NCBI GenBank assembly: GCA_038063915.1
Contig: JBBTUE010000003.1
Location: 1 to 38,389, forward strand
Length of the DNA: 38,389 nt
Reading direction: 5' to 3'
Source of the DNA: Patescibacteria group bacterium
GTDB lineage: Bacteria > Patescibacteriota > Minisyncoccia > Phycocordibacterales > UBA9973
The notes beneath the pieces are model-generated. The model did not search any database and was not told the DNA's origin. It worked only from the letters and a program-made list of their open reading frames with translations. A program made the translations under genes and the position numbers. Each line of letters begins with the position of its first letter. Position 1 is the first letter of the stretch. This document shows, one piece after another, positions 1 through 38,389 of this stretch.

Positions 1-3000
1 GGACAGACATCTGTAGGAGTTGGTGGTGGTGGAACATCTCCTCCTCCGCCAGACCCCCCACCTCCTCCAGAATTTTGCCCCCCACTTTGTTGTACCATTC
101 TCAAGAATTGCTCTTCAGTCACACAAGTACTACCCACACAAAGCTCTTTTGTTTCGATTTTATTACTATGAATAACAGAGGCGTATAGATTTTCTACTGT
201 GTTACCTACATCTGCTAAGAAGCTTTTCATTAAATAACCAACTGAATTATTGTCGGTCGTATCTAAAGATGAGAAACCTTGGATTTTTATATTTAACTCC
301 TGAATAGCTCCAACCACTTGCCACTGGCTTGGAAGCTCGACAGAGTACATACCACTAGGTCCTACAGTCACAAGCTCTGGGTGAGTAACAAGTACTTCTT
401 GGGCAATCACTCCTATCATCTTGTCCCCTGATGCTCTAACATTATATTGTCTTACTCTAAACGACTCAAAATATGATAGAGCCGAGGGTGCATCTGCAAT
501 ATTTTCTTTTAGACGTTCGTCAGATGAACAAGAGACTGTTACTCCTCCGGCTTCTGGATTATAGAGACATTCTCCATCGGAATCAGTAAGTGAGAATATA
601 TTGTTGTCTATCCCCGTATCGGCAACGTCGAGTTTATAGTCCGGTGTTGTATCCCCAATCCCGACGCTTCCCGCATCAAATATTCCTGCATAATTATTTG
701 TTCCCCCTGACGCTGTGGCATAAATACCATAGTTCGTATCGGCAGTACCAGATGCAGTGAAATGTCCAGCATAGTGCACAGTGGCTCCAGTTGTCGTTAA
801 GTTGCCAGTGGCTGAAGCAAGTAGTCCGTAAGAATTGACAGTAAGGCTAGCACTTCCAGCAGTCGATGTGGCATCTGTAAAGCTTCCACCTTTTGAGTTG
901 ATTGTCGCACCTGATACTGAGGTAAGTGTTGGAGTACCACTAACACTTCCGCTTACACCGATATTAGCTATTATAAAATCTGTTCCCGATGTTTCATTTA
1001 TTACCGAATTGCCAGAAACTACTCCAGATATACCTGTTAAGTTACCACGAATACCGAGAGATGCTGCAGCAAGATAAGTTAGATTAGTTGCGCTAGCGGT
1101 ATTGACACTAGGAAATACATTGATAACTGCTCCATCATCAACAGTCGCAGTCGGAGTCACTGTATTATCGATACCCCCAGCAGTGCGTCCTGCCGCAAGA
1201 GTTCCAAAGTTTTGTGTGCCCGTCATAAAGATACCGTACGAGCTTTCTGCCGCATCATCAGCTTGGGTGATATTTATCACACGACTGTGATCATTGCCTG
1301 TAGTACCAGCAAGAGATAAAAGATAGTCCGACGTCGGAGCGACTTGTGAACCAATTTGACCCGTAGTATTTATTTGGAAAAGATCAGTATTGCCGACAGT
1401 GAAGAGCGAGGCGGGGGTCGTGTCGCCAATGCCGACACTCCCTGCTTCAAAAATGGCCGCGTAATTATTTTGTGCTCCACTTGCTGTTGCATAGAGTCCG
1501 ACATTTGTCAGTGCGTTTGAGCCAGCTGATCGAGTAGATGTTGAAGAGAAATATCCGCCGTAAGAAGAAAGTACTCCAGCGGTAGTATCAAAAGTTGCTC
1601 CGGCATTTGAAATATTCGCAACACGGTTTGATGCAGTTTGGCCTGTTGTACTATTTAATACATCAAGACGATATGTCGGTGCCGAAGTAAGTCCTACCCC
1701 CCAACTTGTATTAATTCTTCCAGAGAAATTAGATAGTGAAATTGTTGTTGTCCCAGAACCATGACCTAGATAATCACCAACATATCCTCCAGCAGTTCCT
1801 GCGCTGTCTGTAACATAGAGACTACCATTTACACTCGTAGCATTTAAAACTGTCTGAGTTCCAGCACTGTTGTTTTCAAGAGAAAGATAAGAGCCATATG
1901 CGCCAGTAGAAGACTGAACTGAAGTTTTACCATTAAATATTCCAGCATAGTTATTCGTTCCCCCTGAGGCTGTTGCATAAAGTCCTACATTTGTTGATGT
2001 CCCTGTTTTAGTATTTGAAAGATAGGCACCATATGTAGTCTGAGCACCGGTTCCATTTGCTCCAGAGAGAGAAACATTGAGACCTTTCTGTCCTGTGAGT
2101 GCGCCAGTGCCAGTAGTGACAAGACTAAGTAATGTCCCTGATGTGAGCGTAGAAGATGAAATAGTGTGGAATGTTTCTGTGTCGGATTCTACGGTCCATG
2201 CATTGAGTTCAGTGTCATTAAAAGTGAGCGATTGAGTACCGGTAGGACTTGATATTGTATTCCACACAGATGACCCTCCGCAACCTGTACAAGAAGTGAC
2301 AGTAAGTGCACCTGTGTTGTCTATTTTGGCTTTAGAAACACCTCCCACTTGCCAATCTTGTAATAATTTTGCTCCAGAACCAGTGGCTGTTTCTGTCACA
2401 TTAAGTAGTAATCCGGTATATCCGGCAGTACTACTTTGGTTTACAGTCGGAGTGAGAGAAATCAAATTCTGAGTTCCAGACGAATCATTGTTGTCTGCCA
2501 AGAAGGTACCTATAGTTGTAAGAGCATTGTCAGATGAACTAGTTGTACTTGGGTAAGCAATTTTTAATAGTATATTTCCTCCATTGCCAGTACCTGTACC
2601 TTGGCCACCATTCACTAATATGTTTGTACCTGCCGTATCTGCTACTGCACCAGCTGAACTAGCATTTCCTCCTTGTAGGGTGAGTGTCCCGAAACGACTT
2701 GAATTAACCTGCATTCCATTTGTCGCTCCGTCTGCACCCATTTGACCCACCATTGAACCACCTGAAGAATTGAAAGTTAACAACTGCTCCCCAGAATTAT
2801 TACTGACAAGTAAAGCTCCCTGAGTAGTTCCCGAATCAGCACCGAAGATAGCTATGCCACCTGAATATCCAAGAATCTGTAGCTGTTGTCCTGACATTGC
2901 TTGAATCACTCCTGCCGTCCCACCATTTTGGAAAATTTGTAACCCTGTACCGATTTGAAGTTGTTTTGCGGGTGCTGTCGTTCCGATACCTACATTCCCT

Positions 3001-6000
3001 GCATTAAATATCGCCGCGTAGTTTGTATCCGCACCAGAAGCTGTTGCATATAGACCGATCGCAGTTGAAGTACCAGCTGTGTCTCCAAGTGCTGAGAAGT
3101 ACCCTCCATAGGTGTTCACAGTTCCAGCATCAGTTCGGCCGGTATTGTCAGCAGTATTATATGAACCATATAAATTATAAGTACCAGTTGCAGTATCTGC
3201 TCCTGATTTTGAGACAGCGTTATAAATTCCATATGCAGTCTGCCCTACGGATGCTCCAGCAACTACTGCAGCTGATTGCCAGAAATTCTGAAGACCGTAT
3301 GATGCAGTAAGTGCCCCGGTAGCGGTTTGAGTAGTAAGAAATCGTGCCCCTGGAACAAAGTCACTACTTGAGGTTGCATTTAATCTTAGAGTACCAGAGG
3401 TACTTGTGGCTGTTGAATTGGTAATTACAAGCGCTCCATTTCCAGCGACAGTATTACTAAACAACTGTCCGCTTGTCGGCGCAAATGTAATTGCGCCTGC
3501 ATCAGTAAACGTTGCGATTGCAGTACCGCTATCTTTGATAATAAAATCTCCTGTTGAAGTGAGGTCAATATATGAATCCGTCGCAGAGTTTGCATTTAGT
3601 AGATATGCTCCGGTTGACGTAATGCCAGTAGCAGCTGCGATTGCACCAGAGGAATTGACTTGGAATTGGGAAGTTGCACCGACAGAGAACAATGCATCTG
3701 GAGTTTCATCTCCACCAACGCCAACATTGCCAGCGCCATCTATCCAGAGTCTTTTATTGGTAACTCCATTACTGTTTGTAGCAAAGTATATTGGTACCGC
3801 TGTATTGGTGTACATATATGCCGCACTATCGAGTTTTCCAAAATCGAAATAACTACCGCCACTCGATTGCAATCGGAAAAAAGCAGCGCCACTACTAGTA
3901 GCAGTTATTTTCATTCCAGAATCTGGCCAACCATTACCAGTCACTTTCAACCACCCATCAATTAAAGCAGAGGCAGTAGTGTTTGTGTCGCTTCCTCCTG
4001 TTGCAGTCGCATAGATACCATAATTAACTGGCGTAGTCCCTGTGTGAGTGTTTGAGAAGTATCCAGCATAAGTCGTCTGGCTTGCTGTTCCACTTGCACC
4101 AGAAAGAGAAATGTTTAATCCTTTTTGTCCAGTTAGAGCAGCGGTACCATTAGAAGTTAAAGACAAAATATTTCCTGAAGTAAGTCCATTTCCTGTCATT
4201 AGTCCGATGGTGCCAGTGGTTGCAGAGTTCGCAACGACACTCAAAAGCCCCGTTCCTGTATAAACTCCGGTGTTGGTGATACCAAAATCAACACCTGTTG
4301 TAACAGAAGAATCTATATCAAAGAGCCCGTCTGGGCTTAGATCCCCTATTCCAACTGAGCCATCTTTTTTTATCACCATTTTAGAGCTATATGTCCCTCC
4401 ACCTCCGGATGCTGTTTGGAAATACAGGTCCGCACCGCCACCTCCAACTATATCTGAGACAATTCTCGATCCCAAACTAAATCCTCCACCGCTACCATAC
4501 ACAAATTCCAAAGCTGATGCCCCGGTACCATCTGTGTTTTGTTTAACCAGTATCGAAGAATCGGTAGCTCCTGCTCCTTCAATTGTAGAAATTGGAGTCC
4601 TGCTTACAGTCAACGAAGCAGCAGATGGATATGGTGTCCCGATTGCGACAACTCCTGTACTAGAGACCGCAAGTCCTGGGTAATTTATCTCATACGCTTG
4701 GCTTCCTACTGTTCCACTTTCAGCCACAGTTAAGTGAGTAGTATCGGTAAATGCCGTAATTCTCCTTCGTGTCCCATCAGCAAAGACAAAGTAGTTCGGC
4801 ACCATCGCGGATGTAAATGTCGTACCAACACCAGTGATAGTAGTACCTGATTGTGAAGCAGTACCTGTTGCGTATTGAACTGGTGCAGCCTGGAAAGAAT
4901 GTTCGGGGTTAATGATATCTATGCCGACATTACCGCTTGATGATGCAAGAAGTGTAGCACCAGAGACTTGAAGATTGTATGCTCCGAGGTCAGTTGCGGA
5001 ACCTATTTGTAACTCGCCAGCTCCAGTCAATCTTGCTAACTCATTTCTTGCTACAGAAGATGTGGCTGAGTACCAAGTATAGCGATCACTTGTACTTGCA
5101 GTATTAAATTCAAAGTTATTTGCACTAATACCTAAGCCATAATAATTTACATCTGTTTTACTTGTAGAGGCTCCGTATAATTTTATTTTAGTACCTACAG
5201 TAGCAGCAAAATCAAGTATTCCAAGTGTTCCATTCATTCTGAGGTATTCCGCATCGCCAGTAGCCACGGCTTGGGAAATTCCATAAACAGTAAAACCTGT
5301 AGCGTTAAACGCACTCCCCCCAACTTGTGCTGGACCATTTACCCAATAACTTGCAGTTTGAGATGCAGCGCTTTGGTTTTGAATATATGTAGATCCGGCT
5401 GGAATATCTGTTGTGTACGCAAGAGTCTTTCTTGTTGGACCAGTTGTTTGAGTGATGAAAAGATTTGTGCCATCCCATTCCATTGCCCCAGCTTCAGCAG
5501 CAGTTAAGTTTGTACCACTTGTGAATTTGAGAGGAGCTCCACTTGCCCCGCTTCCACCAGCCGAAATATGAAGGTTGGCTGTTGGTGTACCACTAGCTCC
5601 GATAAATGTTCTATTTGTTACATTTAATCCTGTTGCAGTACCTGGTGCAATTACAATGCCGCCTGTTGTCGAAATAGTTGAATACCCTATTTCCATTGAC
5701 GCAGTTTGATTGGCTGCAGTGATTTTTAATCCATGATTTGCGGTATTATCAACTGACCTGACGATGAGTGCATGGTTAGCATCTTGGTTGGCTGCTCCGA
5801 CATTTACTCTCTCATCAAAATAGGCCGACCAGTTTATTGGAGTTGTGCCCGTGTGGGTATTGCTTACTCGAAGTCCATATGTTGTTTGTGAAGCAGTTCC
5901 GTTTGCTCCCGTAAGAAGTACATTGATACCAGTTTGACCAGTTGAAGATGCTGCAGTGCTGTTGACTTGTATATCGACAACCTTTCCTGAAGATATAGAC

Positions 6001-9000
6001 GAGGATGCAAGATACATACCTGTACCTGTTGTGAGTGAATTAAAATTTCCAGCAAACGCTGACGCAGTTGTTACTTGTGTAGTATTTGCAGAGGTGATCG
6101 ACATTGTTCCGGCTGATTGGATATAGTTTCCAGCAGTTGTTATCGCGGTATCCCACCCAGCTCCAACATTAATCGCTGTCGAAGTAATCGCATCATCGCC
6201 AGTCGCACTTTCGGTCAAGTTCCCAATATTAAGTCCGCGGACAATTCCTGTGATTGCTCCTCCGGAATCATTTTGAGTGACAGTAAATGCATCAATGTCT
6301 AGCACATTCCAAGTTTCAGCATTGTTGCCGGCATCGTTGTCGGTAAATACTGGAGTAAGGTCTATAAGATTTCCTGATGCATCATCTGCCGTGAAAGTAA
6401 GTTGCAGATTGTCGACTCCATCAGTAGCTGAAGTTCCACCAGCTATTGAAAACACATCTACAGTTGGTGCTGCACCTTTAGAAATATTTACTCCATCGCC
6501 TGCATCTAGTACTACATTGAAGTCCCCACCGGAGAGATCAAGGTCGCCATTTGAAACTAAAATATCTCCAGTGGTCAGAGTTAGAGCATCAGTGCCGTCA
6601 GCAGAGCCAGCTATAGTGGTGGCGCCAGTATAGTCAATTGCAAATTTTTGAGAAGCGTTATTTGTCACTGTCAACAGGTTGCCACTTGCAACTGTAAATT
6701 CTGTACTGAATAAGAAATTATTTGCACCTATACCGAGCGATCTAAAGTTTATAGTATCGTTTCCAGAAAAAGAAACATAGGTACTACTGTGGGACGGATT
6801 ATATATACCTGGCACAAATACCCCTAAGTTGAAGATAGGCAAAGTACTACCACTTGCTGTAATAGTGAAGTAGACTGGGTCGTTACGCATCAAGATAGCA
6901 ACTCCACCTGTTTCTGTCCCAGCAACTTTGAAGTAGCTTCGTGTTCCATCACTGACATCTAGTATCCCAGTAGGTGCGGCAGTCCCAATTCCAACTCTGC
7001 CACCCAAAAATGCTGCTGCGTAAGTCGTATCAGCCGTGTTAGCAGTTGTGGCATCGATATAAAGTCCAGTGACAGTATTTGCGAGTGAGCCAGCGTCAAT
7101 AAATGAGATGTGTTGACCATAGAGAGTGTCTGCGTTTGTTGCTTGGTTGTTGGTGATGGCAAGTTTTTGTCCATAGTAAGTAGATGAGGCAGCTGAACCA
7201 GATATTGTAACTGTGTTTAAGAATCCTGATGAACCTGTAGTTGTAATTGCAGAGCTGGTAAGAGCAAGTGGTAATCCTGTTGCCGCATTAGTAGAGATTG
7301 TCACAATATCATTAGTCGTGGCTGGAGAAAGTGTTGTTCCACTTCGTGACCAGTAGCCAATTGTTCCAGTAGAGCCACCAGTTATATTGCCAGTACAAGA
7401 AAGATTTCCGGTTGTGCCGGCATCAGTGATAGTACAAAGAGTATTGGTTCCATCATTAACAACAAGAGAACCTGTGTTGCCGATGGAAATAGTAGGAGCA
7501 GTTTGGTTGAAAGTAATATTACCAGAAGTATTTATTTGAAAAAGATCAGTGTTGCCTACGGTAAATAGCGCAGATGGTGTCGTGTCGCCGATGCCAACAT
7601 TACCAGAAGAATCAATAAGAAGACGCGCAGTATTATTTGTTCCAAGTGCAAGTGGATCAGCCCCATTTGTTAAAATCCCCAATCCATTTATTTGACTCCC
7701 TTGAGCAAGAATATATGCCCATCCTGAATCATCTGATTTGGAGAGATTGGTTAAATAAAAATTACTTGGAAAAGTTGACCCGTGAGTCATAACCTGAACG
7801 AAATTATTGGCCCAATCGCCACTTGCTGAATTGCTAAGTATAAATCCTGAACGAGCTGTTGCTACAGAACTATCAAATTGTGCTAGGTTCGCATAGTCGG
7901 TAGTCGTTGAGTTCTTCACTGATATTGTTTTTGTTTGAGCTGTTCCTGAAATAGCTGAACCAATTTGCAATAAACTCGCTGGCGCTGTTGTCCCAATCCC
8001 TACATTCCCTCCATTAAACACCGCGGTGTAGTTATTCGTTGCTCCAGTTGGTGCAGAAACTGAAAGTCCGTAGGCATTTGTTGCAGTAGAAACAGCAGTT
8101 GCTGGAACCAATATTCCGTATGTATTTGTCAGGGCAACATTGGTTGACTTAATAGCTGGAGAGACGACAAGACCAGCGGCATCTGTAACTGTTTGATTAA
8201 TATTTGTACCGACGAGTGTCATTGCTCCGATTTGGTTAGCAAAAAATGTAGCATAAGTTGTAGGATTTGCACCAGAGAGAGTCACGGTGTGGGCACGAGT
8301 AGTTATTCCTGAGACTCCAGCTGCACTAAATGTTGCAGTAGGGAAAATGTCTAGAATAGAAGCAGGAGTTGCAGTTGCAGCTATTCCTACATTACCTGTA
8401 GCTGAAGCTATATATATTGCATTGTTTTTAAATACTGAGCTGTTTTGAACATCTATGTGATAACTTCCATCACCATCGACTATCCCCATTCTTGCTCCGT
8501 AACCTGTACTTGCATGCAAGAGAGAGATTGTTGGTTCGTGTGATCCTCCAAATTGATTTTTCTGAATTATTAAACCAGTTTGTCCACCAGTTGAGAGAAT
8601 ATATTGCTCGCCAGTTACTTGGAGTGGATAGGCACCACGATCAGTGAATGCATTGATCATGGTTTCGCCAGCAGTATTAACTGCAAGTCCTGGATAATTT
8701 ATTTTGTATGCTTGGCTCCCAACTGTGCCACTTTCAGCAACAGTCAAACTTGTGGTACTACCAAATGCAGTAATTGTCCTTCGTGTCCCATCATCAAATA
8801 CAAAGTAACTTCCTACCATTGCTGAAGTAAATGTTGTCCCTACACCTGTGATAGTAGTCGTAGATTGCGAAGCTGTACCAGTCGCATATTGTACTGGTGC
8901 TGCATGAAGCGGATGAGCTGGATTTTCAATACCTACACCAACAGTGCCATCAGCATAGACACCAAACACAGTACTTCCTGCAGTTGCAGCATTATCCACT

Positions 9001-10415: not shown

Positions 10416-10420
10416 GTTTA

Positions 10421-10786
10421 TTAATTTCTAGTTTCCATTACTTCAACCTCAGAAGATAGTTCTGGGTTTACTACTCCTTTCTCTACAATATTTTTGTTTT
10501 TTAAATAAAAGGTAACAGAAAAAACTCCAACGAATATAATTAGAGTTGCTAGGAAAATATTACGAGTACGACGACGAGACAAAAAGCTTCCAACTGCAAA
10601 CTTGTCTTGTCTTATCTTTTGCTTAAAAAGATAGTTTTGTACCTCCTCTTCGGTTGTAACCCAGCTCCTACCGACTTTCTTACCTTTAATGTCTCCTTGG
10701 CGTATTAAATAACCTAAGTAGTCTTGTGTATAGCCACTTATTTTTGCAGCCTGGTTAAGATTTATGATTTTTTTTAGGGATTCCAT
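10421..10786 (-). CDS. Excisionase-like (HTH_17/MerR-type) helix-turn-helix protein with one C-terminal transmembrane helix
   Basis: INLNQAAKISGYTQDYLGYLIRQGDIKGKKVGRSWVTT, then a basic patch RRRTR and hydrophobic IFLATLIIFVGVFSVTFYL. Start moved to ATG 10786 (MESLKK); the ORF-track start 10840 is also possible. Confidence 0.8.
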   Translation of the reverse strand: MESLKKIINLNQAAKISGYTQDYLGYLIRQGDIKGKKVGRSWVTTEEEVQNYLFKQKIRQDKFAVGSFLSRRRTRNIFLATLIIFVGVFSVTFYLKNKNIVEKGVVNPELSSEVEVMETRN

Positions 10787-10918
10787 TTTGTTAATATATA
10801 TAAGGCTATATCGGATAGACGAGATAAAAATTTTACCCATCTCGGACTACCGATATCTCTTTAAAACTATATATATTATAGTCAAAAAGACCTTTTTAAT
10901 CCAATAAAAAAATCTTAG

Positions 10919-12227: not shown

Positions 12228-12234
12228 TATTTTA

Positions 12235-27611: not shown

Positions 27612-27639
27612 TTTATTGAAATTAATCTGTACTTTTCCC

Positions 27640-27677
27640 CTGCTCGTAATTTCAGCATATGCTGAAATTACGAGCAG
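27640..27677. repeat. 38-bp perfect loop-less palindrome
   Basis: ctgctcgtaatttcagcat|atgctgaaattacgagcag equals its own reverse complement. Confidence 0.95.
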
Positions 27678-27694
27678 ATGTTAGTATTGAAGAT

Positions 27695-28147
27695 TTAAAC
27701 TAAATAGACAATTTCTAAACCTAGCTGTTTGGCTTGATCATGTTCCCAATTTGCACCCTTTGAAGTCTCCCAACCTTTTATAAAATACAGGGTTGTAATT
27801 TTTCCTGATTTAAATATTGGTAAATAAAAATCTTCTAATATACTTTTAACTCCTTCAGTAACAGTTTTCTTTAACTCCTGCATAGGCCATTCAAATGGAA
27901 TCTGGTCAAATATTATCTTCCCTTCTTCTTGGAGTATGCGCACTGTTTCGTCAAACTTTTTTAGATTCGCTTCTACTGATCCAAGACCTCCTGTTGCAAT
28001 TGGTCCACATACTTGCCCTATGTCCTCTGGCATTCTATCAAGCACTTGATGTGCAATTTTATATAAATCCTTGAAATTTTTAGCTTTTTGTAAATCTTTA
28101 TAATTTTCTTCTGTCCAATACTTTGCTGTGTGAGGGTTATCGATCAT
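27695..28147 (-). CDS. DUF4406/nucleoside 2-deoxyribosyltransferase-like protein
   Basis: VCGPIATGG...NLKKF and FIKGWETSKGANWEHDQAKQLGLEI match the family pattern as recalled; starts 2 nt after the gyrB stop. Confidence 0.65.
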   Translation of the reverse strand: MIDNPHTAKYWTEENYKDLQKAKNFKDLYKIAHQVLDRMPEDIGQVCGPIATGGLGSVEANLKKFDETVRILQEEGKIIFDQIPFEWPMQELKKTVTEGVKSILEDFYLPIFKSGKITTLYFIKGWETSKGANWEHDQAKQLGLEIVYLV

Positions 28148-28149
28148 AG

Positions 28150-30243
28150 TTATATATCAAGTCTGGCCATTTTGGCGTGAGACTGGATGAAGGCTTTGCG
28201 AGGAGGAACTTCGGAGCCCATGAGCATATCAAATACTTTATTTGCATCTTCGGCATCATTTATAGTTACTTGTTTGAGTATTCGACGTACTGGATCCATA
28301 GTAGTCTCCCAAAGTTCTTCAGCGTTCATTTCTCCGAGACCTTTATAGCGTTGTACGTGGATTTTGTTTTTCTTCTTTGCTTTTTTATCTTCTTCAACCT
28401 CTGTCTCTTCCTCGCTCTCCTCAGAGCCACCTTCTTCATTTGCGGATTCTGTCAGGAGTTCTTCAATGGACGGAGCATCTTTACCGAGTAGTAAATCTCG
28501 CTCTTCATCAGAGTAAGCATAAAATACTTCTTTGCCTATTTTTATTTTAAACAGTGGCGGCTGGGCAATATATACATAGCCAGCATCAAGTACTGCACGG
28601 AAATATCTGTACATGAGAGTGAGGATGAGAGTACGAATATGTGCGCCATCCACATCGGCATCCGTTGCGATAATCATTTTATGATAACGCATCTTCTCAA
28701 TATCAAATGTATCTCCTATCGATGTACCCATAGCTATGACTAGATTCTTGATCTGTTCTGACCCGAGCATACGGTCAAGACGCGCGCGTTCGACGTTTAG
28801 AATTTTTCCACGAAGTGGCAAGATGGCTTGGGTTTTCCTGTCGCGACCCATTTTAGCCGTACCACCAGCAGAATCTCCCTCTACTATAAATAGCTCGGCT
28901 TCCTCGGCTGATTTTGTCTGACAGTCAGCAAGCTTGCCAGGCAGAGTCATACCCTCAAGAGCACCTTTACGGAGGATGGAGTCCTTGGCTGCTTTGGCAG
29001 CTTTTCGAGACCTGAGAGCTAGGATAGATTTATTTATGATTAATTTGGCTTCATCTGGATTCTCTTCGAGAAAACTTGTAAAAGCATCTCCAAATACGGT
29101 CGCCACAGCGCCCTGAGCCTCAGTAGAGCCGAGTTTGCCCTTGGTTTGACCTTCAAATTGAATTTCACGAAGCTTCACCGATATGACGGCCATAAGCCCT
29201 TCGAGGACATCATCTCCAGTGAACGCCCCATCAGCCTCCTTTAACATATTATTCTTCTTACTATAGGTATTTAGTACGCGAGTAAGTGCAGTTTTAAAGC
29301 CAGTGATATGAGTACCACCTTCGGGGTTATATATATTATTAGCAAAAGGAACTATGTGAGCATTTACATCATCTACATATTGAAGTGCAACTTCTACCCC
29401 GACACTATCCAGCTCGCGTTCAATATAAAATACGCTAGGGTGAATAGCTTTCTCGGATTTATTATAAAATTTCACTAGAGATATTAGTCCGCCTTCAAAG
29501 TAAAAAGTAGTAGAAGGAACTTCAATGGCAAGCTCCGAGAACCAGAAGACCTCTTCCTTTTTTGCAATATCTTTTGCAGATAGTCCTCGAGCATCGATAA
29601 TATTTATGAGCAAACCTTTTACTAAGTAAGCTTGCTGACGCAAATGATTGATAACAGTGTCCCATTCAAACTTGACCTGTTTAAAAATTTCTTCATCCGG
29701 CGTAAAAGTTATGATTGTGCCGTGTTCTTTTGAGGTACCAATTTTTTTAACAATGGCTTTACGTTTACCTTGTGAATATTCTTGAATGTGTTTACCCCCA
29801 TCACGATGAACTATTGCTTGGGTAAATATAGACAAGGCATTGACTACAGATGCACCGACGCCGTGAAGCCCTCCTGATACTTTATAACCACTATCATCTC
29901 CACCAAATTTTCCCCCAGCGTGCAGTGTCGTCATGACAGTCTCAAGTGCAGAAACTTTTGTTTTCGGATGGATATCGACGGGAATACCACGCCCATTGTC
30001 TGCTACTCTAACTGAGTTATCTGGTAGTAATGTGACCTCGATATGATTACAAAATCCACCCATCGCTTCGTCGCGAGAGTTATCAAATATTTCCCAAATC
30101 AAATGATGGAGTCCTTCTACCCCGGTCGAGCCGATGTACATACCAGGGCGTCGTCGCACTGGCTCTAATCCCTCAAGAACAGAAATCTGACTAGCACCGT
30201 ATTTGCCCGTAGAATTTGCTTTTTTTTCTTCCTTTTTGGCCAT
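28150..30243 (-). CDS. gyrB: DNA gyrase subunit B
   Basis: LEGLEPVRRRPGMYIG, DNGRGIP, SGGLHGVGASVVNALS, FEGQTKGKLG, VEGDSAGG, TDADVDGAHI, QRYKGLGEMN, PRKAFIQ. Confidence 0.96.
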   Translation of the reverse strand: MAKKEEKKANSTGKYGASQISVLEGLEPVRRRPGMYIGSTGVEGLHHLIWEIFDNSRDEAMGGFCNHIEVTLLPDNSVRVADNGRGIPVDIHPKTKVSALETVMTTLHAGGKFGGDDSGYKVSGGLHGVGASVVNALSIFTQAIVHRDGGKHIQEYSQGKRKAIVKKIGTSKEHGTIITFTPDEEIFKQVKFEWDTVINHLRQQAYLVKGLLINIIDARGLSAKDIAKKEEVFWFSELAIEVPSTTFYFEGGLISLVKFYNKSEKAIHPSVFYIERELDSVGVEVALQYVDDVNAHIVPFANNIYNPEGGTHITGFKTALTRVLNTYSKKNNMLKEADGAFTGDDVLEGLMAVISVKLREIQFEGQTKGKLGSTEAQGAVATVFGDAFTSFLEENPDEAKLIINKSILALRSRKAAKAAKDSILRKGALEGMTLPGKLADCQTKSAEEAELFIVEGDSAGGTAKMGRDRKTQAILPLRGKILNVERARLDRMLGSEQIKNLVIAMGTSIGDTFDIEKMRYHKMIIATDADVDGAHIRTLILTLMYRYFRAVLDAGYVYIAQPPLFKIKIGKEVFYAYSDEERDLLLGKDAPSIEELLTESANEEGGSEESEEETEVEEDKKAKKKNKIHVQRYKGLGEMNAEELWETTMDPVRRILKQVTINDAEDANKVFDMLMGSEVPPRKAFIQSHAKMARLDI

Positions 30244-30290
30244 AAAATAATTTAAAATACCCCATCAAAACCACCTCGGGATACCCCAAT

Positions 30291-30299
30291 ATTATACCA
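30291..30299 (-). promoter_or_regulatory. Extended -10 promoter TGGTATAAT of gyrB
   Basis: Perfect TGnTATAAT about 47 nt upstream of the ATG. Confidence 0.7.
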
Positions 30300-30312
30300 A
30301 AAGTTAACAACT

Positions 30313-30359
30313 AAAACAAGCCCAAAATCCTTATTTTATAAGGATTTTGGGCTTGTTTT
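30313..30359 (-). terminator. 22-bp perfect hairpin (3-nt loop) after the sensor gene, upstream of the gyrB promoter
   Basis: aaaacaagcccaaaatccttat-ttt-ataaggattttgggcttgtttt. Confidence 0.75.
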
Positions 30360-30365
30360 TAAGGA

Positions 30366-31499
30366 TTATTTTAGGTCAATATTCTTTATCCTATTTTGGA
30401 TGTTTTCTTCTAAGGTTTTTATATTGTGGAGCTCTTCTACTAGACCCTGACTTGCATCTTCGAGTTCAGCAATTTCTTCTTTTAATTCGCTAATACCACC
30501 CCTCCTGCCTAAATGTGGGAATGGATATCTCCTTCTTTGAAGAATTGCAATGACAATTGCTGCAACTCCCAAAGTAAAAAGAATGTAGATAGTACCAGGG
30601 CCCAAGAAATCTTGAACCTTTGCAAGAGTAGAAGGGTCGCCGTTATTTTCCATACCGGGGACTGTAATCCATTTATCATTAAGTATCTGTCGATCGTTTG
30701 TGCTTATTTGCTGTAAACCTTTGTCTAAGATTGATTGGAGAATTTCCTTGTCTTTTGGAATACCAAAGGAAAGCTTGTATTCATATCCAATATTTCCTGA
30801 AACCTTCACCGCATTTAGAACTTGCTTAGAAAGATAAAATGATAAGGACGCTATATCCATAACAGCAGCATCGACTTCTCCTAAGACCACTTGCTGGAGG
30901 GATATCTCATCATCAGTCATAGATTCAATGATTATTCTAGGGTTATTCTTTCGGACAAATTCTTCTAACGCCGACTTGTCGATAATTGCAACTTTTTTCC
31001 CTACTAAATCATTAATATTGCGCATATTGCCATTATCATAATCTTTGCGTACAACTATAACAGCTGGTACTGCGACGAAATTATCTGTAAAGTACAGATA
31101 CTCCTCCCTGTCTTTTGTGTCTGTAATAGATGCAATGACATCCCCTTTCCCTTGCTTTACGTCGTCAAGTATTTGAGATAGAGGTCTACTTTGTAAGTAC
31201 TCGACTTTCGCACCGACTTTTTGAGCAATTAATTCTATATAATCTACAGAGAGTCCTTGGGGAGTGCCGGCAGTATTTTCATATGAAAAAGGGGGGGAAT
31301 TTTTACGCGGGTAAACAACGATCGTGTTGTTACGAGATTTGAGCCATAAATTTTCCTCTGGTGTAAGAAGCGTAGATTCAGCATTTACTATATTACTAGT
31401 AAATAGTACCGCCAATGCAAATATATACACGAAGAAGGTATGGGAGATTTTTCTCATCTGTGACATTTTAGCATAAAATAAACTTTTTTCATTAATCAC
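30366..31499 (-). CDS. SBP family 3 (BvgS/EvgS-type Venus-flytrap) sensor domain + TM helix + short cytoplasmic coiled coil, no kinase domain
   Basis: LTPEENLWLK...PPFSY...GLSVDYIELIA...GEVDAAV...LQSILDKGL...LNDKW; TM IYILFTLGVAAIVIAIL; heptad tail ISELKEEIAELEDASQGLVEEL. Confidence 0.8.
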   Translation of the reverse strand: MINEKSLFYAKMSQMRKISHTFFVYIFALAVLFTSNIVNAESTLLTPEENLWLKSRNNTIVVYPRKNSPPFSYENTAGTPQGLSVDYIELIAQKVGAKVEYLQSRPLSQILDDVKQGKGDVIASITDTKDREEYLYFTDNFVAVPAVIVVRKDYDNGNMRNINDLVGKKVAIIDKSALEEFVRKNNPRIIIESMTDDEISLQQVVLGEVDAAVMDIASLSFYLSKQVLNAVKVSGNIGYEYKLSFGIPKDKEILQSILDKGLQQISTNDRQILNDKWITVPGMENNGDPSTLAKVQDFLGPGTIYILFTLGVAAIVIAILQRRRYPFPHLGRRGGISELKEEIAELEDASQGLVEELHNIKTLEENIQNRIKNIDLK

Positions 31500-31531: not shown

Positions 31532-32623
31532 CTATATATTATCATGCTTTGCAGGTATGTCTTGTACTTCATCTTGCCGTTTTAGTTGATGCTGGGAAAT
31601 CTCAATTTTCTCCTCCTCAAGACCAATCTTCTTCTTTATTATACGCATACGAAGCCACGAATACCATGGTATAAAGTAGATAATAACTATGAGCCCTACC
31701 ACTGGGATTAGGAGTCCTAGTATATTAATAAATACCACAATGTAGTGAATTATCTTACTATCACTAACTAATAATTGCACCCCGAGGCCTGGTTTTTCTA
31801 CATTTTTGTTTGGGTCCACTAGGAACGGTGTAGCATTATATGCTCCCGTTAATAAATTAGACGAGCTCGCATACTGAAAAGCACCAGATGCGTCATTTTT
31901 AACAAGCACATCAGTCAATCTTTTCTTTTTGGTTTGTAGATATTCGATAAACCTCTCTCCTATGGATTTTTGAGAGGTATCTTTAAATGAGATTTTAGTG
32001 AGAGCATTGGGCTCGCCCTTGCCTTTTACAAATATCGACTGTTTTGATAAAATTGCCCGTGAATAATCAGTAATAACAGGTAATGCTATTATTTTTTGAG
32101 AATCATACACAGGAGTGGTCACTACCGCGATAGATTTACTTTCTAGTATATTAAGAGAAATTGATTTTAAGGAATCAAGTATGTTTGTACCTAATCCATC
32201 ATTAGCTAGAACTGCCCCCTCAGAAAGTCCTATGAATGACTCGCCAGATCGTTTGGTTTCAAATGTAATATCAAATATATTACCTGACTGACCTAAATAT
32301 CCAGGATTTAGTATTATTCCTTCAAAGCTTACTCTATTCCTTCCTAGGGATGGTTCTCTTGTCCAAAGGTTGACTATACTGTGAGACTTTGAAACAGCAA
32401 TGACCCTGAGTCTGTCTTCCGGAAAAGAGACAGAGCCTGAGACCGCGTTTATAGATTGCTCTGTTGACTGAGCCTTTATACTGATAGTAATCCTATCGCC
32501 TACTTCTATGTTTTGTGCTGGTTTAGATATGAAAAGTGATGCTGATCTTTCAAAGGCATCTGCCTTGATAAATATAGAGGAGAAGATAATAGAATATACT
32601 ATGAGTTTTATTTTATAATTCAT
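31532..32623 (-). CDS. Cohesin-domain protein with an Ig-like domain and a C-terminal TM helix
   Basis: VGDRITISI...SINAVSGSVSFPEDRL...NLWTREP...AVLANDGLGTNIL; TM near the C-terminus. Confidence 0.72.
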   Translation of the reverse strand: MNYKIKLIVYSIIFSSIFIKADAFERSASLFISKPAQNIEVGDRITISIKAQSTEQSINAVSGSVSFPEDRLRVIAVSKSHSIVNLWTREPSLGRNRVSFEGIILNPGYLGQSGNIFDITFETKRSGESFIGLSEGAVLANDGLGTNILDSLKSISLNILESKSIAVVTTPVYDSQKIIALPVITDYSRAILSKQSIFVKGKGEPNALTKISFKDTSQKSIGERFIEYLQTKKKRLTDVLVKNDASGAFQYASSSNLLTGAYNATPFLVDPNKNVEKPGLGVQLLVSDSKIIHYIVVFINILGLLIPVVGLIVIIYFIPWYSWLRMRIIKKKIGLEEEKIEISQHQLKRQDEVQDIPAKHDNI

Positions 32624-33492
32624 CTCTTCTTTTTATACCACGAAAAACGTGTATAAGCAAATACTAGTATCAGTATAGCTATAGATACTAGAGAAATTGT
32701 GCTTAATATCCCTGGAATGATAATATTTGATTCCCGTATATTTCCACTATAATCTACAGCTCTGATTGTTACTTGTTTAGAAAAGAAACCCCTATACATG
32801 GGCAACGGACTCGAGACTGTGGCCCACTCACCCCTATCATTCATCTCATACTTTTTAACTCCTGAGACAGAATCAATAGCGCTAAAGATAAGCATCGAGG
32901 GTGTGCGTGAAAAATAACTAGATTTTACTAGGCTCAGATCAAATGGTTCTGGAGGCTCGGCATCGTCTGTATTACTATTCTCTACTGTTGCTTCGAAACC
33001 TACTCCTTTGTCTTTCGTTATATTAATCGAGTTATTTAATTTGTTATGAGAAAGCTCTGTGCCATAACCATCATTTAAAAGCACAGTTGAATGATCTATA
33101 GACAGCACCCCGCCGCCTAACTCCTTAGCAACAAACAATAACCTTACGAGGGTCAGTGGACCTAAGGTCGTTTTATTTGGAGTATATAATCCCTCGACTC
33201 CGCCAGGAATAATACCACTCATCTGGATAACTCCAGATTTATCCTCGGGGTGTTTCAACCATAGTTTTATAATGCCACCACTCTCTTGATAGCCCTTAAA
33301 TACTAATAAATCTTTTGGGTAAGAAACTCCAATATCGATAGAATTGATAGACACCCCTCCAGTCTCTAGCACTATATCTATACTAAACTTTTGCCCTACG
33401 TTTATATTCGAAGGAACATCAAAAGATATGTCAGCTGCTTTAGCTGTGATAAATGAACCTAAGAACACAAGAATTATTATAAGTTTTTTCAT
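32620..33492 (-). CDS. Cohesin-domain protein with a C-terminal TM helix
   Basis: VGQKFSIDIVLET...INSIDIGVSYPKDLL...LWLKHP...VLLNDGYGTEL; AIDSVSGVKKYE...IRAVDYSGN; ATGA overlap with the next gene. Confidence 0.72.
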   Translation of the reverse strand: MKKLIIILVFLGSFITAKAADISFDVPSNINVGQKFSIDIVLETGGVSINSIDIGVSYPKDLLVFKGYQESGGIIKLWLKHPEDKSGVIQMSGIIPGGVEGLYTPNKTTLGPLTLVRLLFVAKELGGGVLSIDHSTVLLNDGYGTELSHNKLNNSINITKDKGVGFEATVENSNTDDAEPPEPFDLSLVKSSYFSRTPSMLIFSAIDSVSGVKKYEMNDRGEWATVSSPLPMYRGFFSKQVTIRAVDYSGNIRESNIIIPGILSTISLVSIAILILVFAYTRFSWYKKKR

Positions 33493-33503
33493 ATGATTCT
33501 ATT

Positions 33504-34382
33504 TTATCCAGTCCAATAGAAAGCAAGTATCGAGAAGTCGACAAGATTGATAATATTGTCATTGTTAGTATCTACACATCGAGGTGGATTATCTTTACCG
33601 TACCAGAAGGCCAGAACCGAGAAATCAACAATGTTTATAATTTGATCAGCATTGCAATCTCCCGGAATATTATTCACAGATTCTGTGCTTGGGATATTTA
33701 TATTACTTATAGTAAATTTAACCACCTTACTATTTCTCTTATCATTTTTATAATTTATCCTCACATTATAGTCTCCTCTCTGGAAACCAGCGAGTGAGTA
33801 TATAAATTTATATGTCCCATTAGATTCAGTAGTACCCAAGAAAGTTTCACTTTGTTGGCCATAAATTAATACCTCTACCTCTTTATCTGGAAGTGCGTAC
33901 CCCGAGATTGTGATAGAATCGGAAAATTTTACTTCGACTCGATCAGTAGAAATTGTAGGGGGAAAGCGTACTCCACTTACTGAAGTATAGTAGCCGTTTG
34001 TGACAACTATAGGGTAATTGAGTAGTAGCGACCTACGAGACTCCTCATCTATTGCATAGAGTGTATATATTGAATTTGTACTATATTGCTCGTAGAGATC
34101 AGCTGTAAACACCCCACCTACGTCAGCTATCGTAGTAGTGACGGGTAGACCATTTCTCCATATGTGAACTATGGCGCCTGGATATGCGAAGCCAGAGAAA
34201 CTCACAGTCGTACGAAATGAATAATCTCCCCCACCTCCGCCTATAGCAGTAGAGCCGACAACAGCTGAGACTGACACATTCTCTGGGGGAAGTACAATAT
34301 CAAAAGCGAGAATGGAAAGTGGAGTAGCTAGAGCTATCCAAAATATAAAAAATGATTGAATTATGAATTTGGTATTACACAT
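33504..34382 (-). CDS. Secreted Ig-like protein with a C-terminal dockerin
   Basis: Duplicated Ca-loop/helix segments GDCNADQIINIVDFSVL and VDTNNDNIINLVDFSIL; no TM anchor. Confidence 0.8.
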   Translation of the reverse strand: MCNTKFIIQSFFIFWIALATPLSILAFDIVLPPENVSVSAVVGSTAIGGGGGDYSFRTTVSFSGFAYPGAIVHIWRNGLPVTTTIADVGGVFTADLYEQYSTNSIYTLYAIDEESRRSLLLNYPIVVTNGYYTSVSGVRFPPTISTDRVEVKFSDSITISGYALPDKEVEVLIYGQQSETFLGTTESNGTYKFIYSLAGFQRGDYNVRINYKNDKRNSKVVKFTISNINIPSTESVNNIPGDCNADQIINIVDFSVLAFWYGKDNPPRCVDTNNDNIINLVDFSILAFYWTG

Positions 34383-35406
34383 GTGAAGGCGTATCGTTTG
34401 GCATACTCATACCAGCACGTGCCTTCTTTATAATGTGTCTGTTGTAACGTTTAATGAGCTTTCTTCCACCCCAGAACACAATAATAAATATTATAGCGAG
34501 GAATATAAGTAACTGCCATGGGAAAACAAAAAAGAACACATTCTTAGTAGCACGTAGAGCTTCAGTACCATAGAGAAGATCCATCTTGGCCATATAAGGA
34601 CCAAAAGCATAATTGTGCCATTGGTATAGTGCAGTATCGAAAAATTGAGCAAATCTACCACTCGGAGCTACGTAATCTTTCGGGTTAGGATTCTTTATCC
34701 AGTTTACTTCAAATCGTCGAGTACTACTTGGTAGTATGTTACCACTCGTAGGATTAGCATCTATTTTATCTTCAGGAATATAAAAGAGATCATGCATAAC
34801 AATCTTACCTACAGGTTTTATGCGGTCACCTCCATCATTTTTAAAACGATATGTAAACGAGACAGGTAAAGTATTATACCAAAATTTATTATCGATTGTA
34901 TTGAAGTCTACAAGTCCACCTGCTTCTTTTACATCACCACTCACAGAAAGAAGCACTAATATTCCGGTTTTTGCACCGATAGAAACCCCAGAATTTGCAT
35001 CACTCGGACTATTACCAAAAAAGATTGCACCGAAATGTCCTCCTGGTTCAGCATTTTTAGGAATATTTATAGAGAGATTTACTATTTTTGATTCTTTTGG
35101 TTTAAGTGTTAGTACAGAAGGAGCATTCATCCAAGTCCCAATATCATTCTTGGGTACCACAAACGAAGGATTACCTGTGTCTCCTGATGCTTCAAAGTTT
35201 GCGAAAGAAGAATAGTACGTCTCTGTACCATCATTTTCGTTTATTAATGTAACTTCTTTAGTAAGAGACTCGCCTGGATTACCGCTTATCTCTATTCTCG
35301 CAGGAGACAGACTAAGAGCAGAAGCTAGGTTTGCACTAAATAATACCCCTATAATTATTATTATAAAGAGCGCAAGTGTACTCCTGTTTTTGGAAAAAAT
35401 ATGCAT
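34375..35406 (-). CDS. DUF916/WxL-interacting-like protein with a C-terminal TM helix; paralog of 13025-14002
   Basis: LSPARIEISGNPGE, INIPKNAEPGGHFGAIFF, FKNDGGDRIKPVGKI, GPYMAKMDLLYG, FFVFPW followed by a TM helix. Confidence 0.7.
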   Translation of the reverse strand: MHIFSKNRSTLALFIIIIIGVLFSANLASALSLSPARIEISGNPGESLTKEVTLINENDGTETYYSSFANFEASGDTGNPSFVVPKNDIGTWMNAPSVLTLKPKESKIVNLSINIPKNAEPGGHFGAIFFGNSPSDANSGVSIGAKTGILVLLSVSGDVKEAGGLVDFNTIDNKFWYNTLPVSFTYRFKNDGGDRIKPVGKIVMHDLFYIPEDKIDANPTSGNILPSSTRRFEVNWIKNPNPKDYVAPSGRFAQFFDTALYQWHNYAFGPYMAKMDLLYGTEALRATKNVFFFVFPWQLLIFLAIIFIIVFWGGRKLIKRYNRHIIKKARAGMSMPNDTPSHV

Positions 35407-35427
35407 CTAGTGAAAGAAAGGGGTTAC

Positions 35428-36633
35428 TTAGAATGTTCCGGTCGCTATGAATGTTAGAGTATCTGTATAGTCATTGTGAGCAACAGTAGCAGTAGATATC
35501 GCAGCATTAACTACTACTTCTGCGTGACCTCCAGTAAATGGAGCGCCTCCAGAGTTTAATATATTTTCTCCAGCCGTTGTCAATAATTGAACTCCATTTG
35601 TTTCAGAGTTGGTAGCGCATGTGTCAGTGTTGTAAGGTGATGCACGAGAGAATGCTGTAAGTCCAGCCGTTGCTACACATAGGCCGTAGTTCTCTGTACC
35701 ATCGGCTATCGTACCATCAGCACTACCAATATTGTCACCACCAGCCGATGTGGACACAAGGCCACTTCCTCCATTAGCATTCTGTACAGTGACTACCATA
35801 CCTCCGGCACCACTTGTATCCCCTTCAAGTACTATCAGTTGCACAGCATCCGTTGTGCCAGAAACGCGAGTATCAACCGTTGTGATTGTACCAAGAGCAA
35901 CATTATATGGAGCACTTGATTCTCCTGTTGTACCGCCAGTTTCTGTATCGATATCAAATGTGATAGATGACCCAACGATAGCAGTAACAGTCACTTGGTC
36001 ATCATCAGCAATAGCATATGCTATCTGACTTGAGTGAGTTCCGACGAATGTTGTGAAGCAACCAGGTTGTTCATCACACATTTTAAAATCGATGTTTGTC
36101 GCAGCCACAGATGCTGGATTCAATAGCGTACCACCTGCACCTGTACCTAAAATTGTAAATGTAACTGCTGATGCTGCTGAAGTAGTAGTAAATGTTCCCG
36201 CTGATGGCTTGACGGTAAATATATTGTTTGTCGTATCAAAAGCGACACAAACATTTTCAGCAGTAGCAGAAGTACAAGTAATAGTACCGGCACCTTGAGT
36301 TGTGCCCTCTATTGTACGCGAACCAGTGCTGTCAACAAAGGTAAAGTCAGCATTGGCCCAAGTACCAGATGAAACAAAGCTTGCAGGAAAATCAAATTGG
36401 AATCCGTCTTGATTAGTACTTGTATCAAAAGTAATAGCAGTTGGCATTGTAAAGGTTATAACGTGGTCTGCGTTAGTACTAATTTTAAGCCTAGTTGCTG
36501 TGTCTTTTGATGCTGTAAAACTCGCGGCTATAGCCAAATTAGGCCCAAAAGAAGTAACAAGTATCAGGGCAATCATGGTTATAGCGCTTGTAAATTTCGA
36601 CAACGTATTTTTTGTAAACATTAGTATTTTCAT
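35428..36633 (-). CDS. Secreted two-domain protein with a WxL-like/pilin-like C-terminal domain
   Basis: Signal peptide from ATG 36633 (MKILMF); ends HNDYTDTLTFIATGTF; C-terminal ~180 aa shared with 36747-37847. Confidence 0.65.
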   Translation of the reverse strand: MKILMFTKNTLSKFTSAITMIALILVTSFGPNLAIAASFTASKDTATRLKISTNADHVITFTMPTAITFDTSTNQDGFQFDFPASFVSSGTWANADFTFVDSTGSRTIEGTTQGAGTITCTSATAENVCVAFDTTNNIFTVKPSAGTFTTTSAASAVTFTILGTGAGGTLLNPASVAATNIDFKMCDEQPGCFTTFVGTHSSQIAYAIADDDQVTVTAIVGSSITFDIDTETGGTTGESSAPYNVALGTITTVDTRVSGTTDAVQLIVLEGDTSGAGGMVVTVQNANGGSGLVSTSAGGDNIGSADGTIADGTENYGLCVATAGLTAFSRASPYNTDTCATNSETNGVQLLTTAGENILNSGGAPFTGGHAEVVVNAAISTATVAHNDYTDTLTFIATGTF

Positions 36634-36680
36634 GAATAAAAAATTAATATTAATAATAAAATTTATAATAATCCACTCGT

Positions 36681-36733
36681 ATTTTAGCATATTTTACCAA
36701 TAAAAGATACTCTTTTATTGTAGTTGTGGATAA
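36681..36733 (-). promoter_or_regulatory. Extended -10 TGCTAAAAT, a 10-bp inverted repeat (36698-36720) and a perfect DnaA box (36725-36733) upstream of 36633
   Basis: Direct reading of the sequence. Confidence 0.55.
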
Positions 36734-36746
36734 CTTTCTCCTTGTT

Positions 36747-37847
36747 TTAAAACGTTCCAGTCGCTATGAATGTTAGAGTGTCTGTATAGTCATTGTGGGA
36801 TGGGGTTACATTACTTACTTCAGCATTTACGACTACTTCGGCATGTCCACCAGAGAGTGGAGCGCCAGCAGAATTGAGGATGTTTGTAGGTGATATAGAG
36901 AGAGCTCTCACCCCATTCGTGCCAGAGGAAAGTGCACATGAATCTGACACATATCCGGTTGCTCTTGTGAATCCTGTGAGGCCTGCTGTTGCCACGCATA
37001 GGCCATAATTCTCGCTACCGGCAGCCATTGTAGCTTGTGCACTATTAATATTATCTCCTGGTACTGAAGTAGAAACGAGGCCACTTCCTCCATTAGTATT
37101 TTGAACTGTTATTACAATACCCCCGAGAGCATTTGTATCAGCTTCGACGACAATCATCCGAACGGTATCCCCCGAGCCACCGTTTGAATGAACAACCGCA
37201 GACGGAGTAATAGTTCCCAAGGCGACTGAGTAAGGAGCACCGGACTCCCCACTCCCAAAGTCAGATGCGGTATCCAAATCGAAACTTATTGTCTGTGGAG
37301 TAACAGTCGCGCAAATTTTTCTGGTATACGCAGATCCATCTCCAACATGGGCGTTATCAGATGCAGATATCGATGCAATAGTCGTATCGTACCCTGTGCA
37401 ATTTGAATTCTGATAACCGACAGTTATAGTATCATTGCCAATTAAATCAGATAGACAAACATCTGTACCATAAGTATTAATACTAGTCTCTTGAATTGTG
37501 CCATTTGTTACTCCAGATATTCTGGCGAAAATTTGTTTATTAAAAGCTCCACACGAGTTTCCAATTGAAGAAGAGCTTGAGCAACAGACTACATTGTTAT
37601 CATAATTTGTATTCGACTGGCTCGGAAGTTCTGAGTGGGCATTTGTCGAGCCTGACATACGCAGAAGTGTAACACTGCCCCCAGTGCAGGCAGCTTGTGT
37701 TGTAACAGAGCAAGAAATTGCAGCAAAAATATAATGTGCAGGATAAAAAAGCAACGATAATATTATACCTAGATTGATATAATTAGAATTTTTTGTCTTT
37801 GAGCGGGCCTGTTGTTGCCTCGGGTATTTTAGTATTTGTTTGATCAT
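36747..37847 (-). CDS. Secreted protein with a Cys-rich N-domain and a WxL-like/pilin-like C-domain
   Basis: ISCSVTTQAAC...NVVCCS...TDVCL...SNC...RKICA; ends HNDYTDTLTFIATGTF. The start overlaps the upstream gene by 65 nt and is uncertain. Confidence 0.65.
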   Translation of the reverse strand: MIKQILKYPRQQQARSKTKNSNYINLGIILSLLFYPAHYIFAAISCSVTTQAACTGGSVTLLRMSGSTNAHSELPSQSNTNYDNNVVCCSSSSSIGNSCGAFNKQIFARISGVTNGTIQETSINTYGTDVCLSDLIGNDTITVGYQNSNCTGYDTTIASISASDNAHVGDGSAYTRKICATVTPQTISFDLDTASDFGSGESGAPYSVALGTITPSAVVHSNGGSGDTVRMIVVEADTNALGGIVITVQNTNGGSGLVSTSVPGDNINSAQATMAAGSENYGLCVATAGLTGFTRATGYVSDSCALSSGTNGVRALSISPTNILNSAGAPLSGGHAEVVVNAEVSNVTPSHNDYTDTLTFIATGTF

Positions 37848-38238
37848 CTTTACTATTATTTAGTGGAGCAGTCTCAATAATCTTGTTGATGCTTGGGCGA
37901 TACAACACCGCCTTTCTAGCATTACTAAATATCAAGACTTTGTCGCCTTTTTGAGACTGGGTGAAAAAAGATTGGTCCTTTAGAGCGTTTGGGTCAGAAA
38001 CAGTGGCAACAGTGGGCTCCTCCCCAGTAGGTATAAGATATATTTTTGCAACCTTTGATAATAAGTCTTCTGCCTCTTTTTTGGCTTCAGCGTTAGGATT
38101 TTTGATCAACTTAGTATATTTGTAGTAAAAATAACCTCCAAACGAAAGCGAAGTAGCAATAATCACTATAATAATAATAGCGGAGGGACGGAAAAATTTC
38201 CTTTTACTTATTGATTTTTCATCTTCGTAATATTCCAC
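37783..38238 (-). CDS. Bitopic membrane protein of a CPR-type conserved hypothetical family
   Basis: TM AIIIIVIIATSLSFGGYFYY; EEPTVATVSD...FF...KGDKVLIF...KAVLYRPS..KIIE motif; GTG start. Confidence 0.75.
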   Translation of the reverse strand: MEYYEDEKSISKRKFFRPSAIIIIVIIATSLSFGGYFYYKYTKLIKNPNAEAKKEAEDLLSKVAKIYLIPTGEEPTVATVSDPNALKDQSFFTQSQKGDKVLIFSNARKAVLYRPSINKIIETAPLNNSKDDQTNTKIPEATTGPLKDKKF

Positions 38239-38274
38239 TTGTGTAATTATAGAACAAATGTATTAATTCAGCAA

Positions 38275-38389
38275 TTAGGCAGATATTGGTTCTGGGATTG
38301 GAGTTTCAGCCGGAGGCTGTTCAGTCTCTGGCTGAGGAGTAGGGTCAGCACAAGTGTTCGTTGTTGTATCTAGTATCTGTGGCTCTACA
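38275..38389 (-). CDS. C-terminal fragment of a secreted-type protein (open at right edge); in frame with the giant ORF if the ends are joined
   Basis: VEPQILDTTTNTCADPTPQPETEQPPAETPIPEPISA-TAA(38277-38275); one spare base (38389) precedes the first full codon. Confidence 0.7.
   Translation of the reverse strand, partial: VEPQILDTTTNTCADPTPQPETEQPPAETPIPEPISA

Follow-up and report, generated by a model that had tools for sequence, protein, structure and literature searches.

The 38,389-nt stretch of DNA analysed here (the window; positions 1 to 38,389 of contig JBBTUE010000003.1, assembly GCA_038063915.1, a Patescibacteria group bacterium) can be joined end to end without breaking a reading frame, but this in-frame closure is almost certainly an artefact of windowing and assembly. 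The window is the leading N-free part of a 73-kb chromosomal scaffold of an ultra-small member of the Patescibacteria of the Paceibacteria/Nomurabacteria type. An earlier note on this DNA had proposed an apparent 38.4-kb circle carrying core genes, with one giant surface-protein gene running across the closure point. In our analysis, the two frames that meet there are assigned to two different genes, giant gene 1 at the left edge and giant gene 2 at the right edge. The genome (G000) consists of 647,918 bp in six contigs (C1 to C6) and is rated 96% complete; the window is C3:1-38389, and scaffold C3 has 73,354 bp. The features at the two edges are as follows.

38275..38389, minus strand: end of giant gene 2, with the last 37 codons and the stop TAA (38275-38277); a terminal, partly diverged copy of a 78-nt repeat, read as VEPQILDTTTNTCADPTPQPETEQPPAETPIPEPISA and stop.
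38335..38389, no strand assigned: gap-edge repeat, 55 bases identical to copies beyond a 100-N gap; its last 23 nt reappear at the very start of the sequence past the gap.
1..10415, minus strand: giant gene 1, 3471 codons, its 3' part cut by the left end of C3; N-terminal signal peptide, Peptidase_S74 match at aa 3298-3349, and a Gly/Pro-rich linker ending in ...PPPPTPTDVC plus CC.

First, the right edge is no end of a molecule or contig, as it had been taken to be. Directly after base 38389 come 100 N (C3:38390-38489), which are the sole Ns of the genome, and 34.9 kb of further sequence follows. A second paralogous giant gene past the right edge had been listed in the earlier note as one of three explanations, and it is seen on C3: past the N run, the minus strand holds a frame of 3686 codons without a stop, or 3681 from the first ATG at C3:49533. 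The tail of this giant gene 2 reads ...PPTCVEPQILDTTTNTCADPTPTPETPPTCVEPQILD beyond the gap and reaches the gap as ...FSWNAFSVKDPSIFESIFKGLTIDPTPTPEETPEPTPTPETPPTCVEPQILDTTTNTCADPTPTPETPPTCVEPQILD. It is built from a tandem 78-nt/26-aa unit, CVEPQILDTTTNTCADPTPTPETPPT, with at least two full copies and a diverged terminal copy at the extreme C-terminal tail. The motif does not occur elsewhere in the genome. Tandem Repeats Finder (TRF) gave no row for the post-gap region, which holds fewer than two copies on that side, and the repeat is documented by alignment.

The last 55 nt of the window are aligned at 100% identity with both post-gap repeat copies. Downstream of these 55 nt the window, in its minus-strand reading, diverges into the terminal repeat copy that carries the stop. 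In addition, the window suffix and the first bases after the gap (C3:38490 onward) share an exact 23-nt overlap in a common frame. The frame stays open however the gap is bridged, by the 23-nt overlap, by 55+78n nt, or by the literal 100 N (3757 codons). A literal reading of the 100 N as a masked, perfectly periodic repeat was excluded, since the register needs either 55+78n nt or the 23-nt overlap. Both piece ends that flank the gap recur in the repeat over exactly 55 nt. Elsewhere, contig ends recur over 9-11 nt (the ends of C1 to C5, with 9 nt at the left end of C3, and the left end of C6), and the right end of C6 recurs over 52 nt as part of an inverted repeat inside C6. A de Bruijn assembler with k = 55 that breaks on a repeat leaves recurrent ends of 55 bases, and 55 is a common assembler k. 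Two marks of a scaffold gap were observed: the same repeat unit, register and frame on both sides of the N run, and recurrent ends of k-mer length on both flanking pieces. We assign the right-edge peptide to giant gene 2 as its C-terminus, rather than to giant gene 1, because of the 55-nt identity, the 23-nt overlap and the frame shared with the post-gap repeat. Giant gene 2 would then span C3:49533 down to 38275 and, with the gap bridged, encode a protein of 3711 aa or more. The earlier note had named DVCP continuing as another repeat or as other sequence as an observation that would speak against closure, and something close to it was found, in that the right-edge peptide is the last copy of the giant gene 2 repeat.

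The relatives show a corresponding arrangement. Two congeners of the genome are called G004 and G017 here, and gyrB loci of relatives are labelled L followed by a number; genes of the surface clusters are named u plus their length in aa (u151, u366, u420, u343, u292, u290, u363, u325). In L033, L041 and G004, the u151 homologue is directly preceded by a giant2-like gene, whose C-terminus was read in the first two. The L041 homologue has a ...FSV..P.IFES.I.GLT block and a variable low-complexity tail, and stops about 40 nt before the u151 homologue; the L033 homologue also has a low-complexity tail and stops about 50 nt before u151. The bridged arrangement of tail, stop and u151 in G000 appears to be the same as in these two loci. 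The two giant proteins of G000 are related to each other in a mosaic fashion only, through modules of 39-176 aa with identities of 45-74%.

The arithmetic of the apparent closure was reproduced from the sequence. The minus-strand ORF (open reading frame) 3..10415 has no stop at the left edge, where its 3471 codons end as ...GGGGDVPPPPTPTDVC with a leftover CC. At the right edge, the minus strand reads T and then GTA GAG CCA ... GCC TAA, which makes 37 codons up to the stop at 38275-38277. Concatenation of the ends gives ...PTDVC-P-VEPQILD... and a protein of 3471+1+37 = 3509 aa. Of the three frames that enter from the right edge, a single one is open, the same that turns CC+T into Pro. The frame match is the expected 1-in-3 coincidence, and on this point we agree with the earlier note, which gave the same odds for the match alone. 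The Cys pair across the seam, also pointed out there, is indeed present in the concatenation; as a sign of closure it did not hold, since both giant protein types carry Cys-loop ends. What gives the seam its natural look is that proteins of both types finish in one kind of C-x3-[QE]-x-L-...-C module; any such module placed behind the DVC of giant gene 1 yields a Cys pair across the seam. In the seam module (C-PVEP-QIL), four residues stand between Cys and [QE]-x-L, against three in each of the five distinct natural modules (5/5), which would be a small extra argument against the join. Between the start and the end of the window the terminal overlap is 0 nt, and the first and last 300 nt share no word longer than 8 nt.

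A real extrachromosomal circle or mini-replicon of 38.4 kb, with gyrB, thrS, smc, rnc, rnr and rpsP and a 3509-aa fusion across its closure, has in its favour that the frames fit, that the seam gives a plausible Cys-loop, and that both ends lie within low-complexity tails of co-oriented giant genes. However, its right end is a scaffold gap with the same repeat, register and frame on both sides, the ends do not overlap, and the spacing at the seam departs from that of the natural modules. The gene content, described next, speaks against it as well. The core genes concerned form one block.

14722..31499, no strand assigned: conserved core block with trmD, khpA, rpsP, rnr, vanY, a 754-aa SMC-like ATPase, rnc, nusB-NUDIX, thrS, DUF4406, gyrB and a solute-binding protein.

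Pfam confirms trmD, khpA, rpsP, rnr, vanY, the 754-aa SMC-like ATPase, rnc, nusB-NUDIX, thrS and gyrB. Eight genes were tested for copy number (gyrB, thrS, smc, rnr, rnc, rpsP, trmD and nusB; the test left out vanY, khpA, DUF4406 and the binding protein), and all eight are single-copy in G000 and found on C3 only. The earlier note had suggested looking for other copies of gyrB, thrS or smc in the bin, and none was found. The far end of C3 carries the 3' end of the 23S rRNA and the 5S rRNA. As the earlier note had said, the window shows no replication or partition gene and no integrase: Pfam gave no Rep, Par or integrase domain in the 27 non-giant window ORFs or in both giant proteins, an absence that is not absolute, with 15 of the 27 non-giant ORFs lacking any Pfam match.

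Gene order was compared by local tblastn on regions fetched from G004 and G017. On a 273-kb contig of G004 the order is pheS, pheT, a 919-aa surface gene with the N-terminus of giant gene 2, the orthologues of u151, u366, u420, u343, u292, u290 and u363, and then gyrB, thrS, nusB, rnc, smc, vanY, rnr, rpsP, khpA and trmD. This contig is collinear with C3 from 50.9 kb to 14.7 kb, that is, through the right edge of the window. G017 has the same core order on a 159-kb contig without the island. The wider sample was the best 80 gyrB loci among species representatives of the Genome Taxonomy Database (GTDB), which are Paceibacteria/Nomurabacteria-type Patescibacteria with contigs of up to 840 kb. 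In these, thrS flanks gyrB in 68 of the 80 and pheS in 39 of the 80; among 30 loci inspected, thrS always lies 2-6 kb downstream of gyrB, and pheS, where present, 1-3.5 kb upstream. The earlier note had suggested comparing gene order with relatives; at the point of closure, no departure from their chromosomal order was found, either on the right side (G004, L033 and L041) or on the left, where relatives continue from trmD to rpoB; the order runs on through the right edge. Given a right edge that is a scaffold gap and a segment syntenic with large chromosomal contigs of relatives (159-840 kb), neither the circle nor an assembly loop closed through a repeat and rotated could be upheld, and to the circle we attach practically no credence.

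The search for pheS in the congeners found no match at E<=1e-30, a threshold that was too strict, the PheRS of G000 being atypical. Outside the window, at C3:49700-50899 on the minus strand (L005:11211-12410), G000 encodes a 399-aa single-chain PheRS-like protein with a tRNA-synt_2d core and a C-terminal FDX-ACB domain, and no pheT was found in G000. This is the same domain plan as that of the monomeric mitochondrial PheRS. At the PheRS position, G004 and G017 have a 237-aa pheS and a pheT of about 600 aa.

The left edge is of another kind. C3:1 is a genuine contig end, and no continuation of giant gene 1 was found at any other contig end of G000. The right end of C6 was excluded as a continuation: it is non-coding and is one arm of a 52-nt inverted repeat. 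The Peptidase_S74 match (PF13884) near the C-terminus of giant gene 1 scores 29.6 bits against a gathering cut-off of 22. In having this match C-terminal to a very long extracellular region, giant gene 1 resembles tail-spike/endosialidase-type fibres; it differs from them in being cellular (Patescibacteria), in its length of 3471 aa or more, and in the Gly/Pro linker behind the chaperone domain, to be followed, by comparison with relatives, by one or more Cys-loop modules. The giant1-type proteins of relatives have a C-terminal region in common with giant gene 1 (Peptidase_S74 was scored in giant gene 1 only) and end with a CxxxxC / KEQF-type helix, a Gly/Pro linker, one to three Cys-loop modules and a Pro-rich end. 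For example, the module of L009 reads CTDTQTLVDNVCVD, and those of L011 read CGDTETLVNGACVK, CNENQTLTDGVCVD and CSSSQTLVDGACVE; a module of the same kind in giant gene 2 reads CVEPQILDTTTNTCAD. Compared with these relatives, giant gene 1 would lack about its last 40-150 residues, and its visible ...PTDVC would contribute the first Cys of a Cys-loop module of its own that is missing.

The tail module can be written as C-x3-[QE]-[TI]-L-x(4-7)-C-[VA]-[DEK]. It stands between Pro/Thr-rich linkers, in one to three copies, at the ends of two large surface-protein types in the genus, with sites at window 1-120 and 38275-38389 (both minus strand), in L009 and in L011. The pattern is rare otherwise, with one match in 89,444 aa of ORF bodies. 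It may form a disulfide-bonded anchoring or recognition knob.

That giant gene 1 lacks its end leaves room for a scaffold misjoin, in which the right-edge fragment would supply that end, giant gene 2 would end elsewhere, and the 100-N link would be wrong. The gap indeed carries no sequence proof of the link, and Cys-loop modules are what giant1-type proteins of relatives carry. However, the 55-nt identity and the 23-nt overlap bind the fragment to the repeat of giant gene 2. The visible tail of giant gene 1 could not be aligned to that repeat (the longest common word is 8-9 nt), and its terminal bases recur nowhere. Moreover, the fragment is continuous with u151 and the cluster behind it, which follow a giant2-type gene in L033, L041 and G004, and an alternative end for giant gene 2 is not seen at any of the other contig ends. 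Such a misjoin is thus very unlikely. Another alternative leaves the chromosome linear and gives the missing tail of giant gene 1 the same 78-nt module; the two tails, co-oriented and 38 kb from each other, would then recombine, with a swap of tails or a transient excision of the segment in a subpopulation. The same kind of Cys-loop module is present in both protein types, and both assembly breaks fall at such modules, which this recombination would also account for. Against it, the visible tail of giant gene 1 shows no DNA similarity to the repeat beyond the short words given above, excision would lose single-copy essential genes, and the tandem repeat within giant gene 2 alone fully accounts for the gap. 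We consider it extremely improbable.

A linear chromosomal scaffold cut at its N run remains the preferred explanation, and it also bears on what lies beyond base 1. In G004 and G017, rpoB, rpoC and dnaG come next after trmD (confirmed by Pfam in G004); beyond them lies a block orthologous to C6 of G000 read from its right end. By tblastn, none of rpoB, rpoC and dnaG was found in G000, and PF04563 had no match there, although all 14 control genomes (14/14) were positive. The 96% rating of G000 thus coexists with the absence of these three genes. From the order in the congeners, we infer that rpoB-rpoC-dnaG and then C6 probably follow beyond base 1, in unassembled sequence after the end of giant gene 1, and that the missing stretch between the left end of C3 and the right end of C6 is probably about 13 kb or more. 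At the right end of C6, positions 16571-16622 and 19197-19248 form a perfect 52-nt inverted repeat around the last 2.6 kb or so, one arm being the contig end. The bracketed segment holds an ORF with a MerR/excisionase-like helix-turn-helix; it may be invertible, or may be the cause of the assembly break.

The arrangement most probably arose as follows. Two co-oriented giant surface-protein genes flank a conserved housekeeping block, and at the end of giant gene 2 a 78-nt unit is repeated in tandem and codes for a Cys-loop/Pro-rich module. During assembly from short reads this repeat would have been collapsed, which left two pieces, each with 55 terminal repeat bases; the pieces would have been scaffolded with 100 N, and the window cut at the N run. 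Because of this cut, the minus-strand reading of the window starts with the last 37 codons of giant gene 2. The left edge is a real contig break, and it falls within the Gly/Pro-rich tail of giant gene 1. That short-read assemblies fragment giant genes at internal repeats is well documented (bioRxiv 10.1101/2023.11.21.568195). The present case is like it in having a tandem repeat longer than the k-mer in a very long surface-protein gene, piece ends of length k (55 nt), an N run and an apparent truncation. The differences are not essential: here the 78-nt repeat lies in the extreme C-terminal tail, and the gene has about 3.7 kaa rather than more than 30 kaa. In contrast, the likeness to metagenomic circular contigs, plasmids and mini-chromosomes is superficial only, namely that the ends concatenate without breaking the frame; here the ends do not overlap, genes for replication or partition were not found, the housekeeping genes are single-copy and syntenic, and one end is no end.

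Several points weigh against this explanation. The 100-N gap is a statement of the scaffolder and not sequence. The copy number of the repeat is not fixed, as the register fits the 23-nt overlap or 55 + 78n nt. Exact-protein look-ups for the genes beside each edge gave no independent contig on record, and exact-pattern metagenome scans with a left-end 30-mer and a 32-mer of the giant gene 2 repeat gave 0 matches and no independent assembly. At the left-end break no repeat is visible, the region being G/C-homopolymer-rich and of low complexity. Finally, the position of the missing rpoBC block is taken from two congeners only.

On both sides of the core block lie clusters of surface-protein genes.

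10421..14661, minus strand: surface cluster A, five co-oriented genes of 139, 426, 259, 325 and 213 aa, with signal peptide or transmembrane (TM) segment, upstream of giant gene 1.
31532..38238, minus strand: surface cluster B, seven co-oriented genes of 363, 290, 292, 343, 420, 366 and 151 aa, exported or membrane-anchored, downstream of giant gene 2.

Cluster A and giant gene 1 are absent between trmD and rpoB in G004 and G017. Relative to these two congeners, this part of the window (14661..1) is read as an island inserted between trmD and rpoB. Orthologues of cluster B lie between pheS/T and gyrB in six relatives (G004, L027, L028, L029, L033 and L041), and cluster B with giant gene 2 between pheT and gyrB is present in some relatives only. 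By this comparison, both surface clusters with their giant genes are variable islands at fixed chromosomal slots. The two clusters also share a paralogue pair, u325 (13025-14002, minus strand) and u343 (34375-35406, minus strand), with 25% identity over 284 aa and, in each, a signal peptide and a C-terminal TM segment. In addition, u366 and u420 have a common 180-aa C-terminal domain at 64% identity. On account of this pair and this domain, the two islands can be regarded as related versions of one kind of apparatus.

Had it been real, a 38-kb circle with gyrB, thrS and further essential genes present in single copy would have given an ultra-small bacterium a remarkable genome architecture, but it is not there. 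Window edges can be cut points at N runs, and when the frames of two low-complexity tails match, at odds of 1 in 3, this is no evidence of closure. The repetitive Cys-loop/Pro-rich tails of these giant genes break short-read assemblies. The segment is an ordinary linear chromosomal stretch of a Patescibacteria metagenome-assembled genome, in which a conserved core lies between two variable surface-protein islands that each include a giant gene, and the gap next to giant gene 1 probably holds the rpoB, rpoC and dnaG that this genome is missing.

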